Source of the DNA: a virus
Lineage: Duplodnaviria > Caudoviricetes
Virus record (IMG/VR): IMGVR_UViG_3300036823_000041
Location: 1 to 62,291 of that record
Direction: 5' to 3' (one strand)
DNA: 62,291 bases
Positions 40,172 to 60,787 of this stretch are shown here, piece by piece. Made by a program: the position numbers and the translations under genes. The notes under the pieces were generated by a model. The model did no database searches, was not told the DNA's origin, and saw only the letters and a list, made by a program, of their open reading frames with translations. Position 1 is the stretch's first letter. The number at the start of each line of letters is the position of its first letter.

Positions 40172-40650
40172 GCGCGAAGGATGAGGAGCTGGTGATACCC
40201 ACGGACTTGGTGACTCACTATGAAAAGGCACAGAGCCATGTAGAGCACGCAGTGTGGGACGCATGGACTAGCGAATTCGTAATTGAACTCATCGAACGCA
40301 TCGCCCGACTCACCGAGGACCGGAAGGCGCGCCCCGTCTTCAGCGGGGAGAGGATGGTCGCTTCGCTCAACATTGCCGGCAACGCGGTCGACCTGCATTT
40401 CGCGATGGAGATATGCGGCGCCGTCCAGGGCCGCGGCCCGCTCTACCAGTTTGTCTGCGTGGCCTGCCGGACCGAGAGCCCGCGCGGTCGTAACGAGTGG
40501 GCGTCGAAGAATACGTTCCTCGACGATGCCGACGAAGAGACGCGCGAGCGGCTGAATGCGGCGATGGTCGAGGCGAGTGAGCACGCGCGGATGCACGAGC
40601 TGATTGCGGCCTGGGCCGCGAAGATCCTGCAGCCTGGGCCGACCGTATGA
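40168..40650 (+). CDS. hypothetical protein
   Basis: 160 aa, GAGG SD, coupled overlaps. Confidence 0.55.
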   Translation: MSAKDEELVIPTDLVTHYEKAQSHVEHAVWDAWTSEFVIELIERIARLTEDRKARPVFSGERMVASLNIAGNAVDLHFAMEICGAVQGRGPLYQFVCVACRTESPRGRNEWASKNTFLDDADEETRERLNAAMVEASEHARMHELIAAWAAKILQPGPTV

Positions 40651-40946
40651 ACCGCCGCAACTTTCTGAAGTTGGCGAGCGCCGCGTTGGCGTATCGCATC
40701 GTGCCAGTGAAAGCGGCGCCGCTCGTGCGGCCGTTGTCAGTCGACGCTCTAGACCTGCGGAATTGGGGGAGGGTCGAGATCGGGCGCGCGCCGTTTTGGT
40801 ACGAACCCGCGGGCGTTTCGCTGTCCGGCCTGCCGTACTGGCTCGTCATGCCGCCCTGGATCGCCGACACCTACGGCGGGATATCGCGCGTGCCATTAAC
40901 CACTCGAATATCGGACGGCGGCATCGAACGCGGAGGCAAGCCATGA
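40647..40946 (+). CDS. protein with twin-arginine-like N-terminus
   Basis: MNRRNFLKLASAALA. Confidence 0.55.
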   Translation: MNRRNFLKLASAALAYRIVPVKAAPLVRPLSVDALDLRNWGRVEIGRAPFWYEPAGVSLSGLPYWLVMPPWIADTYGGISRVPLTTRISDGGIERGGKP

Positions 40947-43457: not shown

Positions 43458-43771
43458 AGTTTGGAGGATTGCGCAGAGCGCGCGAATCGCAGGTAAAGCG
43501 CCGCGGCGACGGCTCGGTCATCGGCCAGGACGACGGTCGACCGCCAGGCATGACCGGCCGGCAGTGGAAGCGGCTGCGGAAGGCCGAGCACGCCTTGCGC
43601 CTACTTCCATTGGGCGGACACCCCAACATCGACGCGGCGCGAATCGAGTGCAGAAAGCGCATCGACGGCGCGCACCGTCTCGCCGAACTTCGCGCATTAA
43701 CGCCCGGCGTTAAGTTCCGCCCGAGCCGGCCGCCGTGGAAGCGATTCAAAGCTGCAGAGGCGCAGGGATGA
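43454..43771 (+). CDS. basic hypothetical protein
   Basis: GAGGT SD, ATGA overlaps. Confidence 0.5.
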   Translation: MKFGGLRRARESQVKRRGDGSVIGQDDGRPPGMTGRQWKRLRKAEHALRLLPLGGHPNIDAARIECRKRIDGAHRLAELRALTPGVKFRPSRPPWKRFKAAEAQG

Positions 43772-44115
43772 CCTGCGCCATCGGCCTTCTACTGCTTCTC
43801 TTCGCCGGGCACGCGCTCTGCGACTACCCGCTGCAAGGCGACTTTCTATCCCGCGGCAAGAACCATAAGACGCCCATCCCCGGCGTGCCCTGGTATCAGT
43901 GCCTCGGCGCGCACGCGCTGATTCATGCCGGCGCGGTCCTGCTCATCACGCACAACGTCTGGCTCGCGCTCGCCGAGCTGGTGATTCACGCCGCAGTCGA
44001 CTACGCGAAATGCGATGGCCGGCTCACCTTCAACCAGGACCAGGCCATCCACTACATCTGCAAAGTGCTGTATTGGCTGATCCTCACATCGCATACCATG
44101 AGGCTTCCATCATGA
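43768..44115 (+). CDS. DUF3307-like membrane protein
   Basis: HALCDYPLQ...HALIH...IHAAVDYAK...DQAIH motifs in hydrophobic helices. Confidence 0.8.
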   Translation: MTCAIGLLLLLFAGHALCDYPLQGDFLSRGKNHKTPIPGVPWYQCLGAHALIHAGAVLLITHNVWLALAELVIHAAVDYAKCDGRLTFNQDQAIHYICKVLYWLILTSHTMRLPS

Positions 44116-44768: not shown

Positions 44769-44945
44769 ATGCCGCTCATCGTGTTGATTCTGCTCATCCT
44801 GATTCTGGTCGGAGGGATCGGATACCCGTTTTTCGCGCCGCTCCACCACGCCGCATACGGCTACGGCGGCCAGGGTATTTTCCTGGTCCTGCTGGTCGCT
44901 CTGCTGCTTTATTACTTCGCCGGACCCTGGACGCGGCGGCTATAA
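44769..44945 (+). CDS. DUF3309-like two-helix membrane microprotein
   Basis: LIVLILLILILVGGIGY...YGYGGQGIFLVLLVALLLYYFAG; AAGGGGGG SD. Confidence 0.65.
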   Translation: MPLIVLILLILILVGGIGYPFFAPLHHAAYGYGGQGIFLVLLVALLLYYFAGPWTRRL

Positions 44946-44981: not shown

Positions 44982-45011
44982 GGCGAAGCCTTTACGGGCT
45001 TCGCCCTTTTT
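44982..45011 (+). terminator. intrinsic terminator ending the early/middle arm
   Basis: GGCGAAGCC/GGCTTCGCC stem followed by CTTTTT. Confidence 0.8.
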
Positions 45012-45052: not shown

Positions 45053-47287
45053 ATGACCCATCGAATCCTGCGACTTGCCGGCCTGCTCCTCGTCCTCATC
45101 GCTTCCGCGCAGCTCGCGCTCGCGCAGTCGAAGATCCCGCTCATCGGCCACTTCGGCGGCGTCGGCCCGAATCCCGGCAACCCCACCACCTACCAGGTGA
45201 AGTTTGACCTCGCCTACTGCGGCTCGAATATCCCCCGGATCTTCGGCGTGCTTACCCCGTCGGCGACGACCGCGACCTATACCGCGGATTCGACCGGGCT
45301 CATCTCGAGCACCATCTGGCCGAATGACGACATAACCTGCGGGAGCACGATCGGCGGCACGCGCTACAACGTGACGTATCTGGTCAACGGCTCGGCCATC
45401 GGCCCGGTGACCTGCTACCAGGTGCTCTCGACGGTCGGCACCTTCAACCTCGACGCGGCGATTCCCTGCGCGGTGACGCCACCCCCGCCGCCGCCCCCGC
45501 CGCCCTACGTCGACGCAGAATTTCGCAACATGACGCTCTCGGGCGACCTGTTCGCCAACAACGGGACGTTTTACGGCCAGCTCAATGGAATTTTCTATTC
45601 GCATCCCGGCGACACCATCGCCTCGATCGAGGCCGAATGCGCGAACGCCTGCACCTACGTGGTGACCATGCCGCAGACCTTCACCCTTTCCGGCGACCAT
45701 ACCCTCGCCGCGAACGTGAACCTCGACTTCGAATCCTTCGGAAGCTGGACCATCTCGGGCGGCACGCTCACCATCCCCGCAATGGTTCGAGGGACGATGG
45801 CGAAGCACTTCTCCGGCTCTTTCAAGATGGGCATGATGCAGGCGCGGCTGCCCTTTGAGTGGTTTGGCGCGGTCGGGGACTGGAACGGAACGACCGGGAC
45901 CGATAACACCGCGTTCATGCAGGCCTGCCTCAATGCGCTTTATGCCGGCCAGTGCGTCATGCAGGCGAAGACCTACCGCACGACCGCGCCGCTTACGATC
46001 ACTCGATCCTCGATCGGCATCACCGGCACCGGGACAACGTTCGCCTTCCACTCTGTTTTCCCGAATGGCGTCCCGCCGGGCTCTACCATCATGACGACCT
46101 CGGCCTCGGCCGACCAGATCGACGTCTCGGGCGTGAGCGGCTCGAATGCCATCGCCTTCGGCGAGTTCGATCATTTCAACCTCGCGCGCAACCAGGCGCC
46201 GAGCGGCGCGGCGGCCGGCATTGCGCAAAACTACACCTTCTCGATGAGCCTTCACGACCTCACGCTCGAAGACGACATCTACGGCTTCTATCTCCACGGG
46301 GTCGGCGCTTCTTCAAGCGGTCGCCTTGAAAATCTCTCTGTTCTCTTCGGCCAGCGCGGATTCACCGAGGGCGCCGGAAATTATTACGGGTTTTTCATCG
46401 ACTCCTCGGATGGCAAGGCGAGCCCGTCTCTGCGCATCCGCTACACGGACGTGGATGCCTCGGCGGTGACCGGCGGCGCTGCCGTGGTCTACGGCCTGGC
46501 GACCATCGGAACCGCCATCAATGACCTGATGGCGTGGAATTTTGAGACGGCCTCCTGCACCTACGGGGAATGGATTCAGCAGACCGGGCCAGGTTCGGCC
46601 ATCGCGAGCTCGGATATTCACTTTTACGGAGCTATCAACGACGGATGCGTGAATAGTTGCGTGGTCATCCAGGGGACCACCCTCACGGGCGGCGCCGGCG
46701 TCGAGTACCAGGGCGGATACAACACCTTTGCCGTGGGCACATCGCCGGTCTTCGATATTTTGAATGCGGTCAACGTCCGCATCTCCAGCGTCCAGATCGG
46801 CATCGCGCTGAATACCCTGGCGTCGGCGGCCATCGCCGCGCAGAACTCCTCGAACATCACCCTCACGGCGAACCAGATTCAGGGCATCCGCAACGTCGGC
46901 ATCCTGTTCAACGGGGTGACGCAGGCCTCGATCACCGCGAACATACTCACCGGCAACGGGTCTGCCAACGGCCTCATTCTGCTGCAGAACGGGACCACCA
47001 ACGTTGCCGTCAACAGCAACACCCTGAGCACCCTGAGCGGCACCGGCCTGAGCATCTTCGAGGACAACACCAGTCACGGAAACCGCGGTTTTGAAACGAA
47101 TACCATCGCGTCGACCCTCACCGCGCCATCCCTGCTCGGATCGACCTCCATCCAGATCATGACGACCGCGCCGAGCGGCACCTGTGTCGCCGGCTCGTAT
47201 GTGATCAACACCTCCACAACCGCGGGCACGTACACCAGCTACAACTGCAAGGGCACCGCCTGGGTAGGGAACGGAACGCCGTACTAA
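45053..47287 (+). CDS. tailspike-like right-handed beta-helix protein with Sec-type signal peptide
   Basis: MTHRILRLAGLLLVLIASAQLALA-Q; poly-Pro linker; EWFGAVGD...TDNTAFMQACLN beta-helix cap motif; Asn-ladder repeats. Confidence 0.8.
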   Translation: MTHRILRLAGLLLVLIASAQLALAQSKIPLIGHFGGVGPNPGNPTTYQVKFDLAYCGSNIPRIFGVLTPSATTATYTADSTGLISSTIWPNDDITCGSTIGGTRYNVTYLVNGSAIGPVTCYQVLSTVGTFNLDAAIPCAVTPPPPPPPPPYVDAEFRNMTLSGDLFANNGTFYGQLNGIFYSHPGDTIASIEAECANACTYVVTMPQTFTLSGDHTLAANVNLDFESFGSWTISGGTLTIPAMVRGTMAKHFSGSFKMGMMQARLPFEWFGAVGDWNGTTGTDNTAFMQACLNALYAGQCVMQAKTYRTTAPLTITRSSIGITGTGTTFAFHSVFPNGVPPGSTIMTTSASADQIDVSGVSGSNAIAFGEFDHFNLARNQAPSGAAAGIAQNYTFSMSLHDLTLEDDIYGFYLHGVGASSSGRLENLSVLFGQRGFTEGAGNYYGFFIDSSDGKASPSLRIRYTDVDASAVTGGAAVVYGLATIGTAINDLMAWNFETASCTYGEWIQQTGPGSAIASSDIHFYGAINDGCVNSCVVIQGTTLTGGAGVEYQGGYNTFAVGTSPVFDILNAVNVRISSVQIGIALNTLASAAIAAQNSSNITLTANQIQGIRNVGILFNGVTQASITANILTGNGSANGLILLQNGTTNVAVNSNTLSTLSGTGLSIFEDNTSHGNRGFETNTIASTLTAPSLLGSTSIQIMTTAPSGTCVAGSYVINTSTTAGTYTSYNCKGTAWVGNGTPY

Positions 47288-47304
47288 AAAAACGAAGGAG
47301 CTCC

Positions 47305-50300
47305 ATGCGTCTGAAGATTCTTGCTCTCGTCGCCCTGCTGGTCGCCGTACCGCTTGCCGCCTCGGCGCAATATCAGGGATGCCGGCAGATGTTCCCCGGC
47401 GTGAGTGTCGACCAGGCCTGCATCCAGCTATCGGCAAATATGCTGCTCGGCCCGAACGGCCTGCCGCTTACCGCCGGCAAAGTGGTCCTGACCGTGACCG
47501 ACGCGAGCGGCACTCCCATCAGCTACACCCCGCAGGGCGGCACGAGCTCGAGCGGCGTCTTCACCGCGCAGGTCGTCGACGGTGCCATCCAGAATATCGG
47601 CGGCTATCCCTACACCATCGTCAACTCGCTTACGAGCTCGCCGGCGAACCCGAACCTGTATTTCCATTACCAGCTCGAGTCGACCGACGGCTCGCAGGTT
47701 TATCTCGACGCGCCGCTCCTGAATATCTTCTCCTCGACCGGCGGCTACGCTCTCGATGCCTACGCTGCCGGCGCCGGCACTTCGATCAGCGGATTGCAGC
47801 CGCCGCGCGTGCTCTGCGCGCCGTCGGCGAAGTACACCCAGACCGACGCACCCGCGGGCGCGAAACCCTGGATCTGCTCGCATCTCTGGCGCACTGACAA
47901 CTCGAACCAGTGGACCCAGAACCCGTCGGCAAACACGCAATGCCCCTACGGACAGGCGGTCGTCTCTCCGCGCGTCGGGAACGCCTATTGCATCCAGCCG
48001 GAGAACGCCTTCGCGCTTCCTGGCGAGGGATTCCAGAATCAGGCAAACGTGCCTGGCCCGATTAGCATCGAGCCCATTAACGGCTCGGGCGGCGGCTCGG
48101 CGTTGCCGCTCGGCATCCCGCAGCAGGACAGCCTCGGGCCGCCGGAACCCCCGGCACGTACCGCGGGCGCGCTCGATCTGATCGCAACCGGAACCACCTT
48201 GCACCCGCAGTGGATGAGCTTTACGCCGGCGATCATCACCCAGACCCTGATCGACACCAAGTTCAACGAGGGCTCGGCCGGCGCTCCAGTCATCGGCACC
48301 GCGCCTGCGATCAATGTGCCTGGCAATAGCTGGATCGGCGTCGGCGGCACCTTCGCGAGCGCGCCGGCGTTTGTCTCGGGCGGCGGCATGGCATGGACCT
48401 CGGCCGGCTCGCAGCTCATGCTGATAAATATCGGCAGCTACGGCGGCGACGTCACCTACAAGAATCTGGTAAACCCGGCCTTCGGCTTCACTCTCATCGG
48501 GTTGTCGGACGCTACCGGCGCCAACCAGGTGCAGATGCAGCTCGTCGGCACAAGCCTGCAAATCAGCAAGGTCGTCGCGAACATCTTCACCAATATCGGC
48601 AACCTCACCGTCGCGCCGACCGGAACCGATACCTGGGATTTCATCGTCTCCGGGCAGACCATGTCGGTGAAGCTCAACGGCGCGAGCGTGGGATCGGTAA
48701 CGCTGCCCTCGGGCACCCCTATCACCACGAACCAGTACTGGGGCGTGGGATTCGGCGCGCCGAACCCGGTGCTCGGCGAGTTCATCTACACCGGCACGAC
48801 GACGGTGACGAATCCGATTCCCGCGGTCGGAACCTTCTGCCTCCTCGGCGGCAACGGGAAATGCGGCCCGCTGGTCCCGAATCAGGGCATGGCGCCGCGC
48901 ACCGACGGCTACGTCTCGAGCGTTCCCGAGATCGGCTATTCGACCAACAGCGACGGCACCTCGAGCATCGCCTGGCGCGAGGATCGCAACAGCGGTCAAT
49001 TCGACGTGCGGCGCCCGCGCAACGGAGTGACCTGGGCGAGCGACCCGAATACGGCCTTCGCGAATACCGTGAACGATGCCGTCTGCACGACGATCGCGAC
49101 GCATATCCTGCCGACGGTCAATCTGCCGGCGGGAATCTTTCACGTCACGAATCTGCAGGCGCCTCCGACCCTGACCATCAACGGCGTCAACACGCAGCCG
49201 AACCAGCAGGGGACCACCCTGTTCAATACCAATGCGGCCAACGCGGTCATGGTCGGCGTCCCGAGTTACACGACGAGCTGCAATGGCGTCACGACCACCT
49301 TTGCCGGCATCGGCACCGTCATCCGGTACATAGATTTCGAAGGCCTGGGCGCGACGGCCGCGACCGACATCGGCCTGACGGTGACTCAGTCGACCGGCAA
49401 AGTGGAGTACGACTCCTTTAACAACTTCGGCGGTCCCGGCTTCCGCGTCACCGGCATCAACAACGCCGGCGACCATCTTTTCCTAAATGGCGATCTGGCC
49501 TGGTATTACAATTCGCCCTCCTACAATCCCTCCGGCTTCACCGATACGGCCTATCATGCCGCCGCCGAGCTCGGCAGCCAGGACGGCCAGTATCACGACA
49601 TCTTCCAGACGGGATGGCAGCCCTCTGCCTTTGTCGCGGGCCAGGGCTACTACAACCGCTGGTATCTCTGCGGCGTGCTGCTCGAGGGTTCGCCGAGCTA
49701 TCCCTTCACGAACAGCTTTGTCCAGGTAAACGCCAACGATCTGTGCCTCGGCCAGCAGGGCATCGGCGGCTACATCGTGACGAACAACCGCTTCGACCTG
49801 GCCCATTTCAATTCCGTGCGACTGCCTACGGGTCCGGCGCCGCAGCAGGCCATCGTCCGCAACAACGAGATGACGACCGCCTGCACCTCGCCGACGCTGA
49901 ACCCGGCGAACTTCCCGAGCGATCCCGGCGGCGTCTCGCCTGATCCAAACTGCGCCAACATCCGCGTCGAAGAGGCGTATCTCACCTCGCAAATCGGGCC
50001 GAATGAATACACCGGATCGTTTGTGCCGTCATGGCCGGTGGGCGCCGTGTTCTTCGAGCAGAACGTCTCAGGCCAGCTACCGGGCCGCGCAGATGAGCCA
50101 GGGCAGACCGTCATCGGGCAGACTGGCGGCGACCCGGTCGACGGCAATCAAGGCGTGGACGTCTCGCAGAGCATGGTCGGCGAAACCAGGGTGACCTTCG
50201 GACCCGGAGCGCCGGTCATTCCGATGAATCAATACCGCTCGATTCATCTGTCGAGCAGCACGGCGACGAGCTGGACCTCGGCATCGGTCGAGTATCTGGA

Positions 50301-51291
50301 CACCATCCGCTATATCGACGTAGGGCCAAACGACACCATCGTGAACGGCAACAACCTGGCGCTTTGCGGCGGTCTGAACATCACCGGCGACACGTCGCAC
50401 GTCCTGCACGAGTTTTACTTCTGGCGCGGCAACCTGGTCGAGTTTGGCTGCGGCGGCTCCGGCACCGGCGTGCTCTATCCGAGCGCCACGCAGAATGCCC
50501 TGCCGCGCGCAAATATCGTCGGCGGCGTGACCTCGCTTGAGGATTCAGCATTTGGGGACGACGGTTTCAACTCCTCGACGAGCGAGCCCTTCTACAGCCC
50601 ATCGAGCTACGAGCGCGCCACGGGAACCGCGACCTCGTCGCAAAACTACGTTTCTGGAGTTACGAATTACATCGTCAGTTATTGGGACACGTCGACCGCA
50701 GCCGCGGTCGGCGTCGCCTGGAGCGTCTACGGATGGGTGGCGCAGGGCGCATCGCCGCCGGCGACCGTGCTCACCTACTACTGCCCGACCGGCCTGCCGA
50801 GCTGCGCGGTGCTTTATGCGATCGACCCGGCGCTGCTTGCGACGAGCTCCCAGAACTACGCTTCGCCGAAGCTCAAGGTACGCGGCGCATGCTGGAACGG
50901 CACCACCTCGGTGCTCGACGACTGGAACATCCAGGGCGTACCCGGCACCGGCGCAAACCCGAGCGAGACGCTGGTGTTCTCCCACTCAGGATGCGGAGGG
51001 GCTACGGTCACGCTCGAGATGCCTGGGCTCAAGGTCGACGGGCTCTCGGCGATCGGCTCGGGAGTCGCGACAAATTCAGACATCGACGGCGAGTTCGCGT
51101 TCTCGGCTGCGACGACCGCGACCTACACCTGGCAGAACTCCTACGTCTCACATCCTGAATGCGTCCCTGAGCCGCAATTCTCGACGACGGTTGCCCACTG
51201 GGTTACCTATACCGGCGTGACATCGTTCACCATCAACTTTGCTTCGGCCGTTACCGGCAACGTGGGTTATCTATGCTTGTCCAGAAACTAA
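47305..51291 (+). CDS. large multidomain spike/fibre-like protein (lectin-like plus beta-helix) with signal peptide
   Basis: 1328 aa, MRLKILALVALLVAVPLAASA-Q, VNLPAGIFHV beta-helix entry motif, many Cys. Confidence 0.7.
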   Translation: MRLKILALVALLVAVPLAASAQYQGCRQMFPGVSVDQACIQLSANMLLGPNGLPLTAGKVVLTVTDASGTPISYTPQGGTSSSGVFTAQVVDGAIQNIGGYPYTIVNSLTSSPANPNLYFHYQLESTDGSQVYLDAPLLNIFSSTGGYALDAYAAGAGTSISGLQPPRVLCAPSAKYTQTDAPAGAKPWICSHLWRTDNSNQWTQNPSANTQCPYGQAVVSPRVGNAYCIQPENAFALPGEGFQNQANVPGPISIEPINGSGGGSALPLGIPQQDSLGPPEPPARTAGALDLIATGTTLHPQWMSFTPAIITQTLIDTKFNEGSAGAPVIGTAPAINVPGNSWIGVGGTFASAPAFVSGGGMAWTSAGSQLMLINIGSYGGDVTYKNLVNPAFGFTLIGLSDATGANQVQMQLVGTSLQISKVVANIFTNIGNLTVAPTGTDTWDFIVSGQTMSVKLNGASVGSVTLPSGTPITTNQYWGVGFGAPNPVLGEFIYTGTTTVTNPIPAVGTFCLLGGNGKCGPLVPNQGMAPRTDGYVSSVPEIGYSTNSDGTSSIAWREDRNSGQFDVRRPRNGVTWASDPNTAFANTVNDAVCTTIATHILPTVNLPAGIFHVTNLQAPPTLTINGVNTQPNQQGTTLFNTNAANAVMVGVPSYTTSCNGVTTTFAGIGTVIRYIDFEGLGATAATDIGLTVTQSTGKVEYDSFNNFGGPGFRVTGINNAGDHLFLNGDLAWYYNSPSYNPSGFTDTAYHAAAELGSQDGQYHDIFQTGWQPSAFVAGQGYYNRWYLCGVLLEGSPSYPFTNSFVQVNANDLCLGQQGIGGYIVTNNRFDLAHFNSVRLPTGPAPQQAIVRNNEMTTACTSPTLNPANFPSDPGGVSPDPNCANIRVEEAYLTSQIGPNEYTGSFVPSWPVGAVFFEQNVSGQLPGRADEPGQTVIGQTGGDPVDGNQGVDVSQSMVGETRVTFGPGAPVIPMNQYRSIHLSSSTATSWTSASVEYLDTIRYIDVGPNDTIVNGNNLALCGGLNITGDTSHVLHEFYFWRGNLVEFGCGGSGTGVLYPSATQNALPRANIVGGVTSLEDSAFGDDGFNSSTSEPFYSPSSYERATGTATSSQNYVSGVTNYIVSYWDTSTAAAVGVAWSVYGWVAQGASPPATVLTYYCPTGLPSCAVLYAIDPALLATSSQNYASPKLKVRGACWNGTTSVLDDWNIQGVPGTGANPSETLVFSHSGCGGATVTLEMPGLKVDGLSAIGSGVATNSDIDGEFAFSAATTATYTWQNSYVSHPECVPEPQFSTTVAHWVTYTGVTSFTINFASAVTGNVGYLCLSRN

Positions 51292-52418
51292 TCCTGCTCG
51301 CGCTGCTCCTGATCCTGCCGCGATCGCTGATGCTCCAGAACGTCCAGGGCGCGAGCGGCGTGCGCGGCGTGGCGATCGGCAATCAGACCGGCGCAACCCC
51401 GCCAACTTCCGGGCTCATCTACTCGCCCGTCGCCGGCCACTACACCAGCGCGCAGAGCGTCGGCGTCACCTATAACCCGAGCTCGAGCGGCATCGCCGTC
51501 TTCTACACGCTCGACGGCTCGGCGCCATCCGCAGCCTCGGCGCGCTTTACCTCGAATCTTTCGATCTCGTCCAACACCACGATGAATACGTTGGCCGAGG
51601 CGATCGGCTCGGTGCGCCAGGAGACGCAGGCGACCGGCTCGCTCTGGAAAATCTGCACGCCGGTGGGCGGCGGTCCCGGCACGCCGACCTCGGTCAAATG
51701 CGGCGGCGTGGGATCGACGCAGCCCTCCGGCTGGACCGTGACCTATGGCGCGACGGAATCCATTTCCGTGTCCGCGACCTCCGGCGCGCCGCAGATCCTC
51801 ATCACGCTCGGCGGCTCCGGCTGCGACTCCTGCACCAACATCACGATGGACAAGTGGATTCAGCCACTCAATAATCCCAACCCGAACGTCGAGAACCACG
51901 AGCACGACGCCTGGCACAACAACGGCGCCGGCAACCGCCTCCATATGGGCGGCCTGCAGTGCAACCAGCAGACGGCCTTTCTGCAATGGCAGTACGACAA
52001 CGAGCAGGGCTCGTGGCAGAACCACGTGCCGGCGATCACCCAGGGATGCCCGCTCTCGACGACACTCTGGACGCACATCATCTGGAAATTGCACTGGTTG
52101 GGCGCAAGCGACGATGGCTGCGGCGACGGCCACTCTCCGAGCGTGCATGGCGGACTCGGCTGCACCTATTACGACTCGCTCTCGATCGGCACCGCGACCT
52201 CGCCGGCAGTCGGCGCCACCATGACCGCCTACGCCATCAACGCGACGCTCGAGAACGATAACCCTGGATGGGGCGGCGGCTGCGCCGACCAGGACCAGGT
52301 CGACCTGCGGCCGGGCGGAACCTTCCCGAAAACAGGCGGCGTCAAGGTCCAGCACAACAACGTGACATGCTCGACGGGCACAGTAGCAACGGCCTCGGCC
52401 GCGTACACGATTCCATAA
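51273..52418 (+). CDS. exported protein with chitobiase/Fn3-associated Ig-like domain and a beta-sandwich domain
   Basis: Hydrophobic N-terminus; SPVAGHYTSAQSV...FYTLDGSAPS...ISSNTTMNTLA; Cys-rich. Confidence 0.7.
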   Translation: MLVQKLILLALLLILPRSLMLQNVQGASGVRGVAIGNQTGATPPTSGLIYSPVAGHYTSAQSVGVTYNPSSSGIAVFYTLDGSAPSAASARFTSNLSISSNTTMNTLAEAIGSVRQETQATGSLWKICTPVGGGPGTPTSVKCGGVGSTQPSGWTVTYGATESISVSATSGAPQILITLGGSGCDSCTNITMDKWIQPLNNPNPNVENHEHDAWHNNGAGNRLHMGGLQCNQQTAFLQWQYDNEQGSWQNHVPAITQGCPLSTTLWTHIIWKLHWLGASDDGCGDGHSPSVHGGLGCTYYDSLSIGTATSPAVGATMTAYAINATLENDNPGWGGGCADQDQVDLRPGGTFPKTGGVKVQHNNVTCSTGTVATASAAYTIP

Positions 52419-52432
52419 GGAGAATCACGAAG

Positions 52433-53455
52433 ATGAGAGGCAAATGGAAATTGCTGCTTGCCCTGGCTATATCGCTTCCGCTGGCCGCGCAGCTCGGCGG
52501 TCCGAACGAGAATCGCCTGGCTTATGTCGATACCGGCGGCGGGTTCACTCTCTGGAACGCGGTCACCGACCCGGCGACGCCGCCGTATCCGATGCGCGGC
52601 ATCAATCTCTGGTGCCAGAACGGAGCTACGGTAGGGCATTGCAACCCATCCGGCGGGCCAGGAGGAAGCACCTCCATCACGTCATCTGATAGCAGCCTCA
52701 CCGTGAACCCTAGCCCGCTGACTGGCACCGGGACTATCAACCTGAATCTCGCGCACACAAATATTTTCACTGCGGCGCAGACCTTCAATGCCGGCATTAC
52801 CTCGCAGTTCAACGGCAACGCGCTTGCGATGGCCGACGCCACGGGCGGGCAAGGTCTTTTCACCGTCAACTTGAACCAGGTCGGGACCGACTCCTACGCG
52901 CGCGTCTACTCGGCTTTCAATAACGCATACCTCAAGGCCAGCACGAACTCGGGCAGCGGAGTCGCCGCGTTGCAGCTCGGCACCTCGGCGGTATCGCATA
53001 ACGTGCTCGCGGTCCCCGGCGGCGCGGGCGTGGGGCTCTCCGATTCGGTCATCGGCGATACCCTGCTGCTCGCGAGCGCCGGCAACCGCATCCTCATCGG
53101 AACGACCGGCGCCTCAAACGTGCAGGTCAGCAACGCGCAAATCTCAACCACGCCGAAGACCATCACCGCGAGCGCGACTCCGGCCATCTCGGCGACCGAC
53201 AGCAACCTGCAAATCATCACCCTGTCGGCAAATGCAACGCCGACCATAGCGAATATCGCCGCCGGCCAGCGAATCATCCTGAGCATCTGCCAGCCGGCAA
53301 CCGGTGGCCCTTTTACCTGGACATGGCCGGCTGCGTTTCATGGCGGCATGACCATCGGAACGACCGCCAGCACCTGTTCGCAGCAGGCATTCGACAATTT
53401 CAACGGAACCACCTATCGCGCGGAGAATGCGGGGGTTGCCAATGTCGCACCGTAA
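52433..53455 (+). CDS. fibre-like protein with signal peptide
   Basis: TAAGGAG SD; MRGKWKLLLALAISLPLAA-Q; NIFTAAQTF fibre motif; C-terminal Q.ATGG..TWTWP domain. Confidence 0.7.
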   Translation: MRGKWKLLLALAISLPLAAQLGGPNENRLAYVDTGGGFTLWNAVTDPATPPYPMRGINLWCQNGATVGHCNPSGGPGGSTSITSSDSSLTVNPSPLTGTGTINLNLAHTNIFTAAQTFNAGITSQFNGNALAMADATGGQGLFTVNLNQVGTDSYARVYSAFNNAYLKASTNSGSGVAALQLGTSAVSHNVLAVPGGAGVGLSDSVIGDTLLLASAGNRILIGTTGASNVQVSNAQISTTPKTITASATPAISATDSNLQIITLSANATPTIANIAAGQRIILSICQPATGGPFTWTWPAAFHGGMTIGTTASTCSQQAFDNFNGTTYRAENAGVANVAP

Positions 53456-54989
53456 AGCGTTCGCCGCCCTGCTGCTGCTTTTCTCGGGAGCCGCCTGCGC
53501 GCAGACCTCGGTCAACGGCGTGTCTGGGCAGGCGGTCGGCAGCACCTATATCGGCCTGGTGACGACGCGCAACGAGATGCAGGAATCGCTGAACGCCTCG
53601 GCGACCTGGTCGATGGGCCGCGTCATGCAGTACGCGCGCCGCCCGATTGCCGCCAACACGATGAAGATCGTCTTCGGGAACTTCTACGTCCCGAGCACCA
53701 ACGTCGAGACGAGCCCCGGCACCGGAACCTATAAGGTGAGCGTCGAGTATCCGCTCGGCACCTTTGCCGCCTGCACCTTCGCCGGATCTGCGACGGGATC
53801 GGTGACGGGCATCGGCCTGGCGACGACCGACGCCTGCGGCCCTGCTATCCCCGACGGCGCGCGGTTCTGGATTCGCGTGCTCTACACCAACCCTGCCGGC
53901 ATGATCTACACGGCCGGAGGCTCCAACCATTACGGGTTGCAGTTCCAGACCGCGCAAGGAGACGCATTCATCTTCGGCACCGGCACCGCGGCGGACTACA
54001 CCGCAGGCACCGCCGTCGGCTCCGGCTCTCCGGTCTTCTCTGCAGCGACAACGGCGCTCATGGCGCCGGTGGCCGTGCTGGCGCCTACCAATCAGGCGAC
54101 CGTGGTGCTGGTGGGCGACTCGCGCTGCGTCGGGAACGGTGACACGGTCAGCGACCAGTCGGCCGACCAGGGCGAACTCGCGCGGCCCGTCGGCATGCAG
54201 TTCGCCTACTCGAAGCTCTGCGCGCAGTCGGGCACCGCGGCGGCCTTTGTGACCAGCACCAACTCGGCCGAGCGCCAGATCCTCATCAATTCCGTAATTC
54301 ATCCGACGCTGGTCATCGACAGTTACGGGGTGAATGACATCTTCACCGGCGGCGCCGTTGCGACGCTTATCACCAATCTCAATGCGATCGCCGCGCTCTG
54401 GCCCGCGATCGAGACATGGGGGACGACCATACCGCCGGAGACGACGACGGCAAGCCTGACACTCACGGCGGCCGGCACGGCATCGGGCGGCGTCACCGCC
54501 TACGTCGGTACCTTCCCCAACTGCGGGACAAATGCCTGCGTGGGCGCGTTCTTCACCGTCGCAGGCTTCACGAACGGAGCCAATAACGGCACCTGGGCGG
54601 CGACGGCCTCGACGACGACGGCTCTCACCCTGGCAAATACGGCGGGAGTCGCGGAGACGCATGCCGGCACGGCAACCGACAATTGGGGCACAACCGTCAA
54701 TCAGGCCTCGGTGAACGCCGGGCAGACCTCGAACCTCTACTCGTTTAACTACGTGTTTGCAATGCGCGGCTCGATTTTCAATGAGCGGCGGGTGCTCGAC
54801 ATCAACCAGATTTTTGACCCCGGAAATACCGGGCTCTGGCCGGTATCGGCGCTGAATGGGCAGACGGTCAACGCGCAGCGCACCAACTACGCGACGACCG
54901 ACGGAGTTCACGAGTCGTACCAGGGCAACCAGCTCATCGCGAATCGGCTGGTGAATGCCTTCGCAGCTCTCGCGCGGGTGAACCCCTAA
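53442..54989 (+). CDS. SGNH/GDSL esterase-domain protein with signal peptide
   Basis: MSHRKAFAALLLLFSGAACA-Q; VLVGDS, YGVND and DGVH catalytic blocks. Confidence 0.82.
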   Translation: MSHRKAFAALLLLFSGAACAQTSVNGVSGQAVGSTYIGLVTTRNEMQESLNASATWSMGRVMQYARRPIAANTMKIVFGNFYVPSTNVETSPGTGTYKVSVEYPLGTFAACTFAGSATGSVTGIGLATTDACGPAIPDGARFWIRVLYTNPAGMIYTAGGSNHYGLQFQTAQGDAFIFGTGTAADYTAGTAVGSGSPVFSAATTALMAPVAVLAPTNQATVVLVGDSRCVGNGDTVSDQSADQGELARPVGMQFAYSKLCAQSGTAAAFVTSTNSAERQILINSVIHPTLVIDSYGVNDIFTGGAVATLITNLNAIAALWPAIETWGTTIPPETTTASLTLTAAGTASGGVTAYVGTFPNCGTNACVGAFFTVAGFTNGANNGTWAATASTTTALTLANTAGVAETHAGTATDNWGTTVNQASVNAGQTSNLYSFNYVFAMRGSIFNERRVLDINQIFDPGNTGLWPVSALNGQTVNAQRTNYATTDGVHESYQGNQLIANRLVNAFAALARVNP

Positions 54990-54995: not shown

Positions 54996-55008
54996 TTTTG
55001 GTATGAGT
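54996..55008 (+). promoter_or_regulatory. putative late promoter motif (copy 3)
   Basis: TTTTGGTATGAGT, 9 nt before ATG 55018. Confidence 0.7.
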
Positions 55009-55017
55009 GTCTGCGAC

Positions 55018-55317
55018 ATGAAACGGCTCCCCAGATTCGGCCCGTTTGTACTCGTGGCAGGGTGCCTTTTTACATCCGCAGCTCCGCGCCGGTCCCCCGG
55101 CCAGATGCGGCATCACAGCGATCGCGATTTCGAAAAGCTCGAAAAGACGCAGGACGACATCCAGAAGCACGTCGAGAACACCGACAAGAATGTCCTAGAT
55201 AACAAAGAGCAACTGCTGAAAATCGAGACGATCGCGGAGTGCTTCATGTGGATCGGCGGCTTTGTAGGATTCGGCGGTCTGGCGGCATTTATACGGAAAA
55301 AAGGAGATTCGGCTTGA
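55018..55317 (+). CDS. lysis-module membrane protein (lipobox-like N-terminus, coiled coil, C-terminal TM)
   Basis: MKRLPRFGPFVLVAG-C; FMWIGGFVGFGGLAAFI-RKK. Confidence 0.6.
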   Translation: MKRLPRFGPFVLVAGCLFTSAAPRRSPGQMRHHSDRDFEKLEKTQDDIQKHVENTDKNVLDNKEQLLKIETIAECFMWIGGFVGFGGLAAFIRKKGDSA

Positions 55318-55579: not shown

Positions 55580-55592
55580 TTTTGGTATGAGT
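55580..55592 (+). promoter_or_regulatory. putative late promoter motif (copy 4)
   Basis: TTTTGGTATGAGT, 9 nt before ATG 55602. Confidence 0.7.
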
Positions 55593-55601
55593 TCCCCCGA
55601 T

Positions 55602-56132
55602 ATGGGGAACCCTGCCATTCCGCACTCTGCAATGCTGGCGCTCTGCCAGAAGCACGGCCCGGAGCTCAAGACCGCGGCCGGCATCGACGGCGTCACCCTG
55701 ATGGCCGCGATCGCGCAGAACGAATCGACGTTTGGCGAGAACGTCACCCCGCGGCACGAATCGGCTTACGACTTCGCCGGCTTCTACTCTTCCAATCCCG
55801 ACCAGGCCGCCCTGCTCCAGAAGTACGGCTCGAAGGCGGCCTATAGTTACGGTCCCTGGCAGACGCTTCCCTGTAACGCCATGAGCACTTCGCCAGACCT
55901 GCTCGAGTCAGACCTCGAGATTGCGGCCGCGGCTTTCGTGCTCGACTTCAACCGACGTGTCGCACCCCGCGGCCATTCCCTTTTCCAGTATGCCCAGATT
56001 TACAACGGCGGCCACGTCGCCAGGAATCCGCTCCCCGGCGTGATCCGCTACGCCGACGAACTCGCAGCCAACTACGCGATATGGGCGAAAGCCCTCGAAC
56101 CGGAGGCAACCGATGCACCTTCCCTCTCTTAG
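55602..56132 (+). CDS. endolysin, lysozyme/transglycosylase-like fold
   Basis: AIAQNES catalytic Glu, SYGPWQ, and YNGG...Y motifs. Confidence 0.8.
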   Translation: MGNPAIPHSAMLALCQKHGPELKTAAGIDGVTLMAAIAQNESTFGENVTPRHESAYDFAGFYSSNPDQAALLQKYGSKAAYSYGPWQTLPCNAMSTSPDLLESDLEIAAAAFVLDFNRRVAPRGHSLFQYAQIYNGGHVARNPLPGVIRYADELAANYAIWAKALEPEATDAPSLS

Positions 56133-56469
56133 TCAAGTGCTCATCTACGCCTGCGGCTACGTGACCGGCGCGTCGGTGCTCTGCAATGTACTGCCAAAGG
56201 ACACGGTTTTCGATGCTTACCCCCGCGTTAAAACAGCGTATGGCACAGTTGTCCTCATTCTGGCGTCGTCGGCGTTCAACCTCCGCAAGTTCACCCCCGC
56301 CGCCAACCTCAAAATCCCTTTCCTCGGTTTCGGAGACTACGAAAAGCAGCACCCCGAACTCTTCGGAGCCGTCCTCGTCTCTCCCGGCGTCGGAGCAAGC
56401 CCCGAGGCCGCAATCAAAGACGCAGCCGCCAACGCTGCCCAAACCGGAGGCAACAGCCCCAGGAGCTAA
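56113..56469 (+). CDS. putative holin
   Basis: Two hydrophobic segments; overlaps the endolysin end. Confidence 0.5.
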   Translation: MHLPSLSQVLIYACGYVTGASVLCNVLPKDTVFDAYPRVKTAYGTVVLILASSAFNLRKFTPAANLKIPFLGFGDYEKQHPELFGAVLVSPGVGASPEAAIKDAAANAAQTGGNSPRS

Positions 56470-57016: not shown

Positions 57017-57049
57017 CCCGCGGGCTTCGCAAGGCCCGCGGGCATTTTT
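57017..57049 (+). terminator. intrinsic terminator
   Basis: CCCGCGGGC/GCCCGCGGG stem followed by CATTTTT. Confidence 0.75.
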
Positions 57050-57069: not shown

Positions 57070-57348
57070 ATGAAAAGCGCAAACCCGAAACCGATGGGAC
57101 CAGGCGGCTCGCAGAAGGACCGCATCGGCGAAGACGAAAAGGATATGAGGCGGCCGGCAGTCACCGTCGGCGGCAAGTCGACGACCGGCATCAACCAGGC
57201 GAGCGCCGCCACCCAGGCCGGCACCGACCCGACGATGGCGCAGATTTTCAAGCCCTCGAAGCGCGTCGGCATGGACAACTCGGTGAAGCCGGCGCCAGTG
57301 CAGCCCAAGGCCAAGCGCCGTTTCAAAATCGGACGAGAGGAGTACTAA
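57070..57348 (+). CDS. small basic hypothetical protein
   Basis: AGGAG SD, 92 aa. Confidence 0.6.
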   Translation: MKSANPKPMGPGGSQKDRIGEDEKDMRRPAVTVGGKSTTGINQASAATQAGTDPTMAQIFKPSKRVGMDNSVKPAPVQPKAKRRFKIGREEY

Positions 57349-57349
57349 C

Positions 57350-57712
57350 TTGCCTTTCCCAAATCCAAGCACCGGAATCGACCCGTCGCCACGCAAATAC
57401 ACCCTGCCAGCCGGCGGCGGCCTCGTCGACATCCCTGCGACCAAGTTCGCGCGCCGCGTCGAGATCATCGAGGACGGCAACGTGGCGGCATTCGCCGGCT
57501 TCTCGCTGAAGTATCCGAACGGCAACACCATCGGCTACACCCCGGACCAGCAGCCAGCCGTCATCGAGGACTCGCCCAAGCGCGGCAACGCGGGCGGCAA
57601 CTTCCTCGCCGAGCCGGCACAGGAGGGCTATCCTGGCCCGCGGGCGGCGGATCTCTACTGCCAGGCGAGCTCGACTGCGGGAACCATCATCGTCGTTAAA
57701 GAGCTGGAATAG
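57350..57712 (+). CDS. small beta-rich (possibly virion) protein
   Basis: GAGGAG SD, TTG start, 120 aa. Confidence 0.6.
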   Translation: MPFPNPSTGIDPSPRKYTLPAGGGLVDIPATKFARRVEIIEDGNVAAFAGFSLKYPNGNTIGYTPDQQPAVIEDSPKRGNAGGNFLAEPAQEGYPGPRAADLYCQASSTAGTIIVVKELE

Positions 57713-57721
57713 AGGAGCGGC

Positions 57722-58228
57722 ATGGGCTTCCGCGACTGGTTTGTGACGGCAGCGCATCATCGCGAAGTCTGCGCGCTCTACGAGCAGCGCCTGGTCGTCG
57801 CCGCAGATATGGCGACGCGGGCCGAGGAGCGCGCAGCTCGCGAAGTCGAGATCCGGCAGGAGCTCGAGAAGAAGCTCGTCGACAGCCTGTTCGCGAAGCC
57901 GGAGAAGGTCGAGCAACGTCCGCGGCTGAAGCCGTCCGAGAAAACGGAGCGGGTCCAGGTTCCGCTCTCGCTCGACGATCCTGCCTCCATCATCCGCCAG
58001 GCCGTCAAGGAAGTAGGCGGCCGCAATGGCAATGCAGTCGCGGCCAGGGCGCAACGCATCATGGACAACCTCAACCGCGGCCGCACACAAACCCGCACCG
58101 CCGTGCTCAAGATGCCCGAGCGCGCCGAGGCGATGAGAATCATCGAGGACGCGACCAGGGAAGCCGAGGCCGAGGCCTACCAGCGGTCGGTCGACGCAGC
58201 CGCAGCCGCGCGCGAAGCAGCAAGCTAG
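57722..58228 (+). CDS. helical hypothetical protein upstream of portal
   Basis: GAGGAG SD, 168 aa. Confidence 0.65.
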   Translation: MGFRDWFVTAAHHREVCALYEQRLVVAADMATRAEERAAREVEIRQELEKKLVDSLFAKPEKVEQRPRLKPSEKTERVQVPLSLDDPASIIRQAVKEVGGRNGNAVAARAQRIMDNLNRGRTQTRTAVLKMPERAEAMRIIEDATREAEAEAYQRSVDAAAAAREAAS

Positions 58229-58240
58229 AAGGGGTAAGGA

Positions 58241-60787
58241 TTGGCAGAGCCGACATCCATTTCGGTCGATACACCGGACCAGACCAAAGCCATCGTCCGC
58301 ATCGACCCGCAAGCCGCCGGGCTCGAGCAGACCGCCTCCGACGACCCGACGCCATTTGCGCCGGCCACGCCGAAGTCTCAGGAGGACAAGGACGCGGTCG
58401 AGCGCATGTCGCAGCGCATCACCGACGCGCTGCGCGAAGTGCGCCGGCAGTTCCTCACCGCCGATTCGGCCGAGTACAACTCCTACCTTCGCCGCATCAC
58501 CCGCTGCTTTGAGACGTTCAAAAATAACCCGTACATTCTCTACAACGACACCACGGGCACGACCGACACCATCTCGCAGATCATGCGCTCGCAGAATGTC
58601 GATACGAGCGACCAGATCGACCTCTATCAGTACAACGACAACGTCTACCAGATGCTCGGCCTTACGCTCATTGCCGCGCTAGGCGAGGACATCCCGCGTT
58701 GCCGCTACCAGCCCACCGATGCCGAGAACGAAGCCGACATCCTCATCGCCGAAAAGGCCTCGCTTATCCAGGCCGACAACGAGCGCAAGAACGGAGTCGC
58801 CGCTCTCCAGAAGAAGGAGCTCCTCTACTTCTGGTGCACCGGCTCGTATTTCAAGTACACGCGCAACGTCGTCGATGCGAACCGCGCCGGCGTAACCCGG
58901 CAGCCCGTCGTCGCGATGAAGCCGACCGAGACGGCTCCGGCCCGCTACATCTGCCCGGATTGCGGCGAGGCGACTCCCGAGGCCGACTTCAACCAGCGGC
59001 CAGGCTCGCCGATGGCGCTTGCCGGCGGCGATCAGGGCATGGGCCAGGGCGCGCCGGACGATCAGGGCATCCAGTGCCCGCAGTGCAACGCGCAGATGGG
59101 CGATGCGGACTGGCACGAGCCTTTCAATATGGACATGCCGCAGCGCGTCGGCGAAAAGGTCGTGCCCAACTCGATGTGCGCGATCGACGTTTATTGCGGC
59201 GCCTCGGTTCGGATCAATCCCAAGGCCGAGGATCTCTACGAATCGAAGTATCTGGATCTTTCCGGCGAGGTCGATGCCGGCACCGTGCGCGCCGCGTACC
59301 CGGATTTCTGGGATCAGATCGGCGGCAACAAGGGCGAGAACGCGGACCCGAGCGATCAGCAGGGCGTCACCGTGCGCCGGCGCATCGGCTCGCCATCCGG
59401 CACCGATACCGCCCTGAGTTCCACGCTCAATGGCACCTACTCGCGGTGCTGGCTGCAGCCGGAGGCGTTCAATATCCTCGATGACCGCGATCTCGCCGGC
59501 GACCTGCAGCGGCTCTTTCCCGAGGGTGCGAAGCTGGTTTTGTGGGGCGACACGCTGGTGCTCGATGCGGTGCCCGACAAGATGATGGACCACTGGACCC
59601 AGGCCCGCACCATCAAGGGGCTCGGCGCGTATCCGTTCGGCATCGGCGACGCGGCGCTCGACATCCAGGCGCGCATCAACAGCACCGCGAATACCATCCA
59701 CGCCTACATGGACCGCCTGGCATTCGGGACCATCCTGGCCGACGCGGAGCAGATCGACGTAGAGCGGCTGACCGACAAGGCCTTGCATCCGGGCAACTTT
59801 ACGGAGATTTACCGCAAAGACGAGAGCGGGATGCTGGACAAGCGGCTCGAGGACATCCTCTACCAGCCCGAGTTCCACATCGACTCCCATATTTTCCAGT
59901 ACCAGCCGCAGCTCATTCAGCTCGCCCAGGTCATTGCCGGCGTGCAGCCGCAGACCTTCGGCGGCTCGGACCCGAATGTCCAGACCGCGGCCGGGCAGGC
60001 GCAGATGCTTCGCCAGGCGATGGGCCGCATGAAGCTCTTTTGGGACCAGATCCGCGAGGAGCATGCCGCCGCCGCAGAAAACAGTGTTCGCTGCACCGTC
60101 CAGAACATGGACGCGCAAATGAAGATCGTCACCGAGGGCTCGAACCCGGACAGCTATCAGACCGTCGTGCTGCTCAAAAACCAACTCGTCGGCGACTTCA
60201 TGGCGTACCCGGAGACGGAAGAGGGCATGCCGGCCTCCTACGACGAGATGCGCGCGAACCTCATGCAACTGCTCGAGCAGGCGCAAAAGAGCCCGTTCCT
60301 CTCGGCCGTGCTCTCCGAGCCGGACACGATGAAGCTGGTCGCGCGCTACATCCTGCCCTACGGCGCGAAGATGCCGGGAGATGCCGAGCGCGCGCGCATC
60401 AAGACGGTCATCGGCCAACTCTCGAAGCAGGCACCCCGCCAGGTGCCGCCGCCGCCGCAACAGCCAGGGGCGCCGCCCGCGCCGCCGCAGTTCATCTCGT
60501 CGCAGGTACCGTCGCCCGATTACGACGACTACGGCATGATTGTGGAAATAGCGACGGAATGGCTGCAGGAAAACTGGCAGATTGCGCAGACGCCGGGCTT
60601 CATCAACGTGCTGCTCTACATGAAGGAAGCGAAGTCTCAGGCGACCTTGAATGCGATCAAGATGCAGCAACAGGCCGCCGCGGCGCTGCCCCCACCGCCT
60701 GCCGCCGGATCTGGCCCGAAGCCGCCGGGAGGGCCGCCGCCCGGCCTTCCCGCGGGCCATCCCCCAGGTCAGCAAGCTATCCAGTAG
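58241..60787 (+). CDS. portal protein
   Basis: 848 aa with P22-like portal organisation (PTDAENEADILIAE..., PFGIGDAALDIQARIN, IAGVQPQTFG...TAAG) and a Gln/Pro-rich tail. Precedes a scaffold-like gene. Confidence 0.8.
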   Translation: MAEPTSISVDTPDQTKAIVRIDPQAAGLEQTASDDPTPFAPATPKSQEDKDAVERMSQRITDALREVRRQFLTADSAEYNSYLRRITRCFETFKNNPYILYNDTTGTTDTISQIMRSQNVDTSDQIDLYQYNDNVYQMLGLTLIAALGEDIPRCRYQPTDAENEADILIAEKASLIQADNERKNGVAALQKKELLYFWCTGSYFKYTRNVVDANRAGVTRQPVVAMKPTETAPARYICPDCGEATPEADFNQRPGSPMALAGGDQGMGQGAPDDQGIQCPQCNAQMGDADWHEPFNMDMPQRVGEKVVPNSMCAIDVYCGASVRINPKAEDLYESKYLDLSGEVDAGTVRAAYPDFWDQIGGNKGENADPSDQQGVTVRRRIGSPSGTDTALSSTLNGTYSRCWLQPEAFNILDDRDLAGDLQRLFPEGAKLVLWGDTLVLDAVPDKMMDHWTQARTIKGLGAYPFGIGDAALDIQARINSTANTIHAYMDRLAFGTILADAEQIDVERLTDKALHPGNFTEIYRKDESGMLDKRLEDILYQPEFHIDSHIFQYQPQLIQLAQVIAGVQPQTFGGSDPNVQTAAGQAQMLRQAMGRMKLFWDQIREEHAAAAENSVRCTVQNMDAQMKIVTEGSNPDSYQTVVLLKNQLVGDFMAYPETEEGMPASYDEMRANLMQLLEQAQKSPFLSAVLSEPDTMKLVARYILPYGAKMPGDAERARIKTVIGQLSKQAPRQVPPPPQQPGAPPAPPQFISSQVPSPDYDDYGMIVEIATEWLQENWQIAQTPGFINVLLYMKEAKSQATLNAIKMQQQAAAALPPPPAAGSGPKPPGGPPPGLPAGHPPGQQAIQ

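Follow-up and report, generated by a model that had tools for sequence, protein, structure and literature searches.

The soil-phage record IMGVR_UViG_3300036823_000041 of IMG/VR, whose 62,291 bases constitute the whole stretch analysed here (the window), carries at positions 45053-54989 five consecutive open reading frames (ORFs) of the + strand, p1 to p5, which fill this interval and encode tailspike- and fibre-type proteins headed by N-terminal leaders. Export of the five proteins is well supported by their sequences. As to their destination, the reading tentatively preferred here, to which somewhat less than an even chance is granted, is that they are exported through Sec and work as free enzymes without joining the particle, in the periplasm and also once the cell has lysed; attachment to particles at that later stage is almost equally likely. 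The five genes are as follows (aa, amino acids; a slash marks the predicted cleavage point).

45053..47287, + strand: p1, 744 aa; leader 1-24 (ALA/Q), Cys-containing N-domain ~25-140, poly-Pro linker, predicted right-handed beta-helix ~180-690.
47305..51291, + strand: p2, 1328 aa; leader 1-21 (ASA/Q), mature start QYQGCRQ, conserved N-domain ~22-250, variable C-terminal 1000 aa.
51273..52418, + strand: p3, 381 aa; atypical hydrophobic leader (possible VQG/A), CHB_HEX_C_1/Fn3-associated domain 52-111, Cys-rich C-terminal part.
52433..53455, + strand: p4, 340 aa; leader 1-19 (LAA/Q), low-confidence extended middle, tip domain 232-338.
53427..54989, + strand: p5, 520 aa; leader ending ACA/Q, N-terminal beta-rich part, SGNH/GDSL-type, inserted repeat domain ~343-420.

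The leaders were called by a heuristic rule-based scan together with reading of the translations. Those of p1 (…SAQLALA/QSK), p2 (…PLAASA/QYQ), p4 (…SLPLAA/QLG) and p5 (…SGAACA/QTS) each have a basic n-region ahead of a hydrophobic core, with small residues at -3/-1; all four pass the scan. The p3 leader, MLVQKLILLALLLILPRSLMLQNVQG/ASG, has a hydrophobic core but an Arg in its c-region and no A-x-A, and it fails. By the same scan 11 of the 65 ORFs of the window are leader-like, Gln at +1 being found only in p1, p2, p4 and p5. The original prediction, made from the letters of the window, had described five consecutive leader-bearing genes over ~10 kb, which the ORFs bear out, with the reservation that the canonical Sec/signal-peptidase-I type ending in A/Q is present in four of them and p3 is atypical. 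It had also reported the tail proteins at 3-2102 to be leaderless where their start is visible, and ORF 639-2102 does start without a leader.

The start sites agree with the presence of the leaders. The leader-including start of p2 is preceded by a GAAGGAG Shine-Dalgarno motif. The longest ORF of p4 begins at 52268, and the start at 52433 has an AAGGAG Shine-Dalgarno and coincides with the database gene call P0067; for p5 the gene call P0038 puts the start 5 codons later. True starts located beyond the leaders had been named as an observation that would speak against export, and no in-frame ATG, GTG or TTG with a Shine-Dalgarno-like motif was found within 70 codons past the leader in p1, p2 or p3. 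The leaders are a product neither of chance nor of mis-called starts.

Conservation points in the same direction, the leaders being kept, as real export signals would be, in the relatives of p1, p2, p4 and p5. In the p1 family 30 of 36 relatives are leader-like, with a Gln reachable at +1 in 25 of the 30, while 3 are fragments and 3 lack a leader. The five relatives of p2 all carry one, and four of them share the mature start QYQGCRQ. Both full-length relatives of p5 have a leader; its other 20 matches, which have in common with it only the 75-residue inserted domain, do not. The p4 tip domain (C-terminal 110 residues) is found in 564 representative proteins at E <= 0.001, and of the 149 listed besides the query at least 97 have a leader-like start, with Gln in 79 of these, 33 have none and 19 are fragments. 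Relatives of p1, p2, p4 and p5 at 45-62% identity, each with its leader, occur together on a second contig of 17,618 bp. Across the families the n-h-c layout, the small -3/-1 residues and the +1 Gln are maintained at only 30-60% identity. No relatives of p3 were retrieved, a single-protein scan of IMG/VR with p1 found nothing, and the p2 alignment returned nothing from IMG/VR and a single 2,097-bp contig from one metagenome scan.

The recurrent Gln agrees with the probable host. The phage is likely to infect Terriglobia (Acidobacteriota), because an Acidobacteriaceae genome holds the best genomic relative of p1, relatives of the portal protein (22-31% identity) are present in 55 of the 401 genomes searched, all of this class (3 of the 55 unpublished), and both an enrichment of +1 Gln and a glutaminyl cyclase are found there. 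In 400 kb of one Acidobacteriaceae genome, Gln is the joint-commonest +1 residue under the strict rule, at 15% versus a background of 3.9%, and when the rule is loosened it is reachable in 34% of the leader-like ORFs. The leader style of p1, p2, p4 and p5, as read from the sequences, fits that of the exported proteins of the likely host. The cyclase family PF05096, the type searched for, was detected in 9 of 41 Acidobacteriaceae genomes sampled, and therefore capping of the +1 Gln as pyroglutamate is possible, although unproven. Of what had been said about the A-Q ends, then, the Gln itself stands as typical of the families and frequent in the likely host genome, and the capping stays a suggestion.

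The five proteins are rich in cysteine, with 56 Cys in 3313 aa (1.7%) versus 20 in 6805 aa (0.29%) in 12 virion-module ORFs, a comparison set made of the ORFs of 57070-62290 plus 3-15253 and taking in a Cys-free ORF of 3316 aa. Among the p1 relatives the median Cys content is 1.71% in leader-bearing proteins versus 0.69% in the three leaderless ones. Pairs are conserved: C196/C200 of p1 in 20 and 18 of 21 sequences, C213/C229 of p2 in 5 of 5, and C286/C315 of p4 in 43 and 42 of 43; the N-domain of p2 holds three conserved pairs. The many and often paired Cys ascribed to the mature parts are thus confirmed, and the Cys pattern, together with leader conservation, would fit export and oxidative folding outside the cytoplasm.

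It is very improbable, on these grounds, that the leaders are unused during infection, the proteins staying in the cytoplasm and joining particles unprocessed, or the hydrophobic N-terminus serving another role. As far as is known, all tailed phages studied assemble their virions in the cytoplasm, and cleavage of the leaders is itself a prediction, with that of p3 atypical, all of which would suit such an explanation. It would nonetheless leave the persistence of the n-h-c layout, of -3/-1 and of the +1 Gln at such low identity without a reason, and it does not agree with a Cys content that rises with the leader or with a motif that matches the exported proteins of the host.

Concerning the folds, the model of p1 shows at residues 180-690 a right-handed beta-helix, with a predicted local distance difference test (pLDDT) score mostly >90, and an N-domain of low confidence. 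The best Foldseek matches of p1 are the A-modules of the Azotobacter mannuronan epimerases AlgE4/AlgE6 (E about 4e-7, template modelling score up to 0.64 on target), followed by the tailspikes of Sf6, HK620 and CBA120 (TSP2/3) and the Klebsiella depolymerase Depo32 (E 7e-6 to 2e-4). NosD or Beta_helix Pfam families were detected in 13 of the 33 p1 relatives scanned, and p1 is, judging from its model, a polysaccharide-active tailspike-like enzyme. For p2 a conserved N-domain of ~230 residues is followed by a variable remainder. Two beta-helix spikes had been proposed; p1 is one by model and fold matches, and the assignment was dropped for p2, its sole support being a weak match in a profile comparison with p1 (probability 19.6%). 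The protein expected to be an Ig-like beta-sandwich, p3, does contain a chitobiase-type Fn3-like domain (CHB_HEX_C_1, Pfam E 4.4e-10).

The fibre-like character attributed to p4 is supported by its fold. Residues 232-338 are modelled with pLDDT 95-98, and their best match is the tailspike of Acinetobacter phage Solidus (Z 8.6, root mean square deviation 2.2 over 85 residues), the next ones being a chaperone-substrate complex (Z 6.7) and CBA120 TSP4 (Z 6.5). The tip has 166 BFVD matches at E <= 0.001; the 50 listed are mostly uncharacterised proteins of uncultured tailed phages, several of them named tail fibre proteins. One relative has the Pfam domain Gp53-like_C, and in other proteins the tip sits after GDSL esterase, beta-helix or pectate-lyase-like modules. 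By the modelled structure, p4 is thus a tail-fibre-type protein with a phage fibre-tip domain. The SGNH esterase assigned to p5 holds as well, although the Pfam match is under the cut-off (E 0.0049, 17.8 vs 32.9 bits): the blocks G230-D231-S232-R233, G301-V-N303-D304 and D492-G-x-H495 are invariant in a three-sequence alignment of p5, P0039 and P0040, which marks p5 by sequence as an esterase of SGNH/GDSL type. The ~75-residue insert of p5 (…TGT..GG..N.F.G..FTVAGF…NNG.F.C.ASS.TTLTL.N..G..ETHAG…; residues ~343-420) recurs, as one copy or as tandem copies, in numerous phage-like proteins that have no leader (P0041-P0056), and also in L064, L065 and L067. No PHROGs match was obtained for any of p1-p5, and sequence searches of the PDB with p1, p3, p5, a p5 profile, the portal and a 181-aa ORF downstream gave nothing meaningful.

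The surroundings of the five genes are listed below.

44982..45005, + strand: terminator-like hairpin just before p1; stem of 10 pairs (7 of them GC) with a T-run after it.
55003..55317, + strand: 104-aa ORF; lipobox-like LVAG/C near the N-terminus, C-terminal transmembrane segment, weak phrog_1193 match (E 0.0068); candidate unimolecular spanin or lysis protein.
55587..56469, + strand: two ORFs, 181 aa and 118 aa; by position they may be endolysin and holin.
57017..57042, + strand: terminator-like hairpin; 11-pair stem, 9 GC pairs; closes the unit starting at p1.
58241..60787, + strand: portal protein, 848 aa; P22-like; opens the virion module.

The two hairpins, both strong, enclose p1-p5 and the next four ORFs and set them apart from the portal-led module. 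Apart from the ORF at 55003-55317, none of these four, the 181-aa and 118-aa ORFs included, has a significant family match in Pfam or PHROGs (nor has the 181-aa ORF in the PDB), and no sigma-70-like promoter was found upstream of p1. Just upstream of the first hairpin the + strand encodes a DUF3307 membrane protein (43735-44115; phrog_2470, E 6e-27) and, at 44770-44945, a very short ORF whose product is highly hydrophobic.

The preferred reading would run as follows. The five proteins would be late products, expressed from the unit that also includes the putative lysis genes, and host Sec would move them to the periplasm, where signal peptidase I would remove the leader, four times before a Gln. 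Disulfides would form in that compartment and the N-terminal Gln may cyclise. The proteins would then cut or de-esterify envelope polysaccharides of the host, such as nascent exopolysaccharide (EPS) or O-antigen-like chains, in the periplasm and later in the slime, which would keep the progeny from being trapped and would destroy the receptors left on debris. In a host with two membranes a Sec leader delivers to the periplasm and not outside the cell; therefore, with a plain Sec leader, "secreted" amounts to released at lysis unless another secretion system takes part.

We lean to independence from the particle because of the linkage to lysis genes, a chromosomal relative of p2, the failure to detect an attachment domain and a possible pair of paralogues. 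The relative of the p2 N-domain (37% identity, 1369 aa, with leader) is surrounded by ordinary chromosomal genes, no phage genes being seen within ~20 kb on either side. Known families of virion attachment were not detected by Pfam in p1-p5 or in 67 relatives, though docking domains of a new kind may exist, and no domain or N-terminal anchor was found to be shared among the five, which likewise favours independence. As for the paralogues, P0015 (with leader) and P0019 (leaderless) are 42% identical over 412 aa and each is assigned to an ENA contig of the same length (22,685 bp), and hence one phage may carry both forms. Related phage contigs also hold leaderless tail-protein candidates, such as that at L007:7386-8672, which has a tail-fibre PHROG match, and this too speaks for action apart from the particle.

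Other observations weigh against that action, and many of them argue for an alternative which retains an appreciable, though smaller, chance: receptor-binding proteins would be exported, folded with disulfides in the periplasm and docked on spike-less particles when lysis merges the compartments, in a final extracytoplasmic step. The periplasmic site gives no access to the outside before lysis, and therefore the gain over a free enzyme of the cytoplasm would be limited to folding chemistry or to periplasmic substrates. The lysis-gene assignment is weak. The proteins have the folds and modules of tailspikes and fibres, the p4 tip being a tail-fibre/tailspike domain, and the relatives of p1 and p2 have conserved N-domains and swapped C-termini, a pattern typical of virion-anchored receptor-binding proteins. 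In the 62-kb window, which is cut at both ends, no leaderless receptor-binding candidate, nor any other besides the five, is visible.

The gene contexts of the relatives add to this weight. At least seven IMG/VR phage contigs (L006, L007, L008, L010, L060, L061, L062) have leader-bearing relatives within their structural modules, in runs of 1-4 adjacent large genes to which several contigs add small leader-bearing ORFs. In L006 they are placed between head genes and a tail protein, in L007 and L010 they follow immediately on the genes for adaptor, head closure and DNA ejection, and in L060 they have the portal on one side and the major head protein on the other. L061 has four successive ones flanked by head genes and tail genes; three are consecutive in L008 and four in L062. 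These counts leave out L011-L013, where the beta-helix match is not in a clean ORF, and the weak or short matches L002-L005, L014-L024 and L063-L068, and L009 duplicates L008. In the first set of related loci p1 alone is common with the window. The tailspike gene of P22 is positioned directly after the ejection-protein genes, and in vitro tailspikes can be added to P22 heads to complete their assembly. Moreover, the mature parts of P0004 (with leader) and P0011 (leaderless) open with the same kind of N-domain, as if the same architecture worked by both routes.

A similar association is found in bacterial chromosomes. Among 81 Acidobacteriaceae genomes, 8 contain the p4 tip domain, and in the five contexts examined it forms the end of an ORF of 329-1674 aa that starts with a leader and adjoins a small capsid module, composed of terminase and portal by PHROG in L055, the island scanned, and similar by eye in the others; adjacency to terminase/portal genes in these islands is a further argument for mounting. 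These islands (L054-L058) are small and conserved. Besides terminase and portal, they contain genes resembling those of a protease and a capsid, a connector, a regulator of XRE type and a single giant fibre with a leader, which measures 808-1674 aa (in L058 the ORF has 329 aa). Neither a tail tube gene nor one for a tape measure is visible, and the islands may be satellites or gene-transfer-agent-like elements. A Terriglobia prophage (G426:C3, L080-L083), which has the portal alone in common with the window, shows a structural region ending in a 1178-aa leader-bearing ORF (…APAFG/Q, 19 Cys).

Mounting after lysis has difficulties of its own. The five genes are grouped with the putative lysis genes between terminators and not with the virion genes, the N-domain of p2 is also used in a gene outside phages, no known attachment domain is seen in the five or in their 67 relatives, and dilution at lysis would cost efficiency. 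In addition, literature searches, with supplements (which possibly list predictions) outside their scope, retrieved no description of tail fibres or tailspikes with signal peptides in tailed phages, and hence no precedent. The original prediction had offered joining to particles or clearing of capsule as outcomes of export; conserved export signals on phage spike/fibre-like proteins and a fitting Cys content uphold its premise, and the evidence does not separate the two outcomes.

A third destination, the surface of the infected or lysogenic cell, is improbable. Displayed or acting there as the fibres of Bdellovibrio do, the proteins could alter surface glycans or adhesion, or exclude other phages. 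The order of leader, conserved beta-rich N-domain and variable tip matches that described for the MAT fibres in part of PMC10769870, the p2 N-domain has its chromosomal relative outside phages, and Q-rule signal-peptide genes figure in passages of a report on phages of P. gingivalis (PMC10367356). Further exported-looking proteins are encoded in the early region of the window by three small ORFs of the + strand: 37277-37720 with a Sec-type leader, 37944-38375, which is lipoprotein-like (…LGGC), and 40647-40946 with a twin-arginine-like start, MNRRNFLK (weak TAT_signal match, E 0.0054). Display is at odds, however, with the orientation of p1-p5 and their third-position GC (0.74-0.86, like the rest of the phage), which are those of late genes, and with the location of the relatives inside structural operons, which a lysogen does not normally express. 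In none of the five proteins was an outer-membrane anchor, a lipobox or a tag of a known secretion system seen, and neither integrase nor repressor adjoins their genes.

The remainder of the window is in keeping with a phage genome. The record has no terminal repeats and ORFs run off both of its ends. The P22-like portal at 58241 (feature score 0.97; 21 of 30 matches in P22_portal clusters) identifies it as a tailed phage, and HNH, methylase and nuclease genes are further phage-like content. No hits were returned by tblastn with the portal, p4 and p1 against 50,697 GenBank phage records, and the 487-aa ORF at 639-2102 had no usable match in a protein atlas. The giant 3316-aa ORF (5303-15253, + strand) contains no cysteine, matches phrog_21 at residues 994-1333 (E 6e-69) and has a weak GGDEF-like match at 787-838; it shares the opening motif PDLLDDV with the preceding 244-aa ORF (4568-5302), and it probably encodes an internal protein of several domains that is ejected. 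Candidate genes for the small and large terminase subunits, recognised by motifs read by eye and weak PHROG matches (E 0.29, 0.028), occupy 15283-17808 (+ strand). The large one seems split over the overlapping ORFs 15537-16631 and 16618-17808, which may reflect a frameshift, an assembly error or a real split. On the - strand, 20265-26445 encodes a DNA-end-processing set formed by a HerA-like ATPase (E 8e-12 to HerA helicases of the PDB), a second ATPase similar to SbcC/Rad50 and a PD-(D/E)XK nuclease. The HerA-like ATPase (20265-21959) had been considered as terminase on account of a phrog_2666 match, a proposal abandoned in view of its PDB matches.

Receptor-binding proteins and depolymerases determine host range and the crossing of slime, and their synthesis and mounting are taken to be cytoplasmic. 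Many uncultured soil phages have a whole class of these proteins with conserved export signals. Should these act as free enzymes, phages whose soil hosts are rich in slime would own an export-dependent toolkit for release or receptor destruction, and annotation pipelines would wrongly label its components as parts of the virion. Should they instead be mounted after lysis, the textbook scheme of assembly would gain an extra branch, so far unknown for tailed phages, in which Terriglobia tailed phages, and perhaps those of other soil bacteria, export spikes and fibres via Sec, and infectivity would depend on Sec, Dsb and signal peptidase of the host. In any case, filters based on signal peptides would be unsuitable for excluding phage origin.

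Comparison with known systems places p1-p5 between several of them. The tailspikes of which we are aware have no signal peptide, assemble in the cytoplasm and bind the particle through defined N-domains. Those of Sf6, HK620 and CBA120 (TSP2/3) and the Klebsiella depolymerase Depo32 share with p1 the right-handed beta-helix, and p1 is modular with variable ends; it differs in its cleavable-looking Sec leader, its conserved Cys pairs and the lack of a recognised particle-binding domain. Synthesis without an export signal, a trait of tailspikes, is seen in only 3 of the 36 p1 relatives. The closest fold belongs to AlgE4/AlgE6, extracellular alginate-modifying enzymes that are not phage genes, have 13-15% identity to p1 and are exported by a different route; the shared fold does not show a shared reaction. 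Lambdoid cargo (Shiga toxin genes; lom, bor), located from the late promoter to the lysis genes, comprises signal-peptide proteins of late or structural regions that are expressed lytically and freed by lysis; unlike p1-p5, they are neither spike/fibre-like nor a conserved multi-gene set across phages.

Export of phage products by the host has been described in other settings. Sec-exported endolysins exist (fOg44 Lys44 and others, as well as signal-arrest-release endolysins), according to part of PMC6116005; they are late phage proteins handed to host Sec as the five would be, but cell-wall hydrolases instead of spikes or fibres. Signal peptides are reported on 5% of the carbohydrate-active enzymes of soil prophages in a section of PMC13507307. 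The target proteins of phage diversity-generating retroelements are said, in part of PMC6199706, to be without the signal peptides present on bacterial ones. In the report on Tunturi acidobacterial phages the terms "signal peptide", "tail fiber" and "tailspike" are absent (PMC11924767). Passages of PMC5837995 and PMC10653852 describe the Q-rule, signal peptidase I cleavage that exposes Gln, as Bacteroidetes-specific. The P. gingivalis phages mentioned above, whose Q-rule genes are of unknown function, resemble p1-p5 in copying the leader style of the host, with the difference that here the host is likely to be an acidobacterium and only an enrichment is found (15% and 34%, in one genome), a hint that the +1 Gln preference extends beyond Bacteroidetes.

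The nearest parallels in layout and in proposed function are bacterial. The MAT fibres of Bdellovibrio have a signal peptide, then a conserved ~130-aa domain and swappable tips, and are located at the cell surface, as stated in the portion of PMC10769870 already cited. They are comparable to p1 and p2 in layout, homology not being implied; they are encoded by chromosomal genes of the predator, and several end in an S74 chaperone domain that is not seen in p1-p5. WceF of Pantoea stewartii is an exported trimeric beta-helix of tailspike-like fold that carries a Tat (twin-arginine) signal, cuts the bacterium's own exopolysaccharide and is speculated to act during periplasmic transfer, according to parts of PMC7949094. 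It is a bacterial gene of an EPS biosynthesis cluster and uses Tat, whereas p1-p5 are phage-borne, of Sec type and form a set of five.

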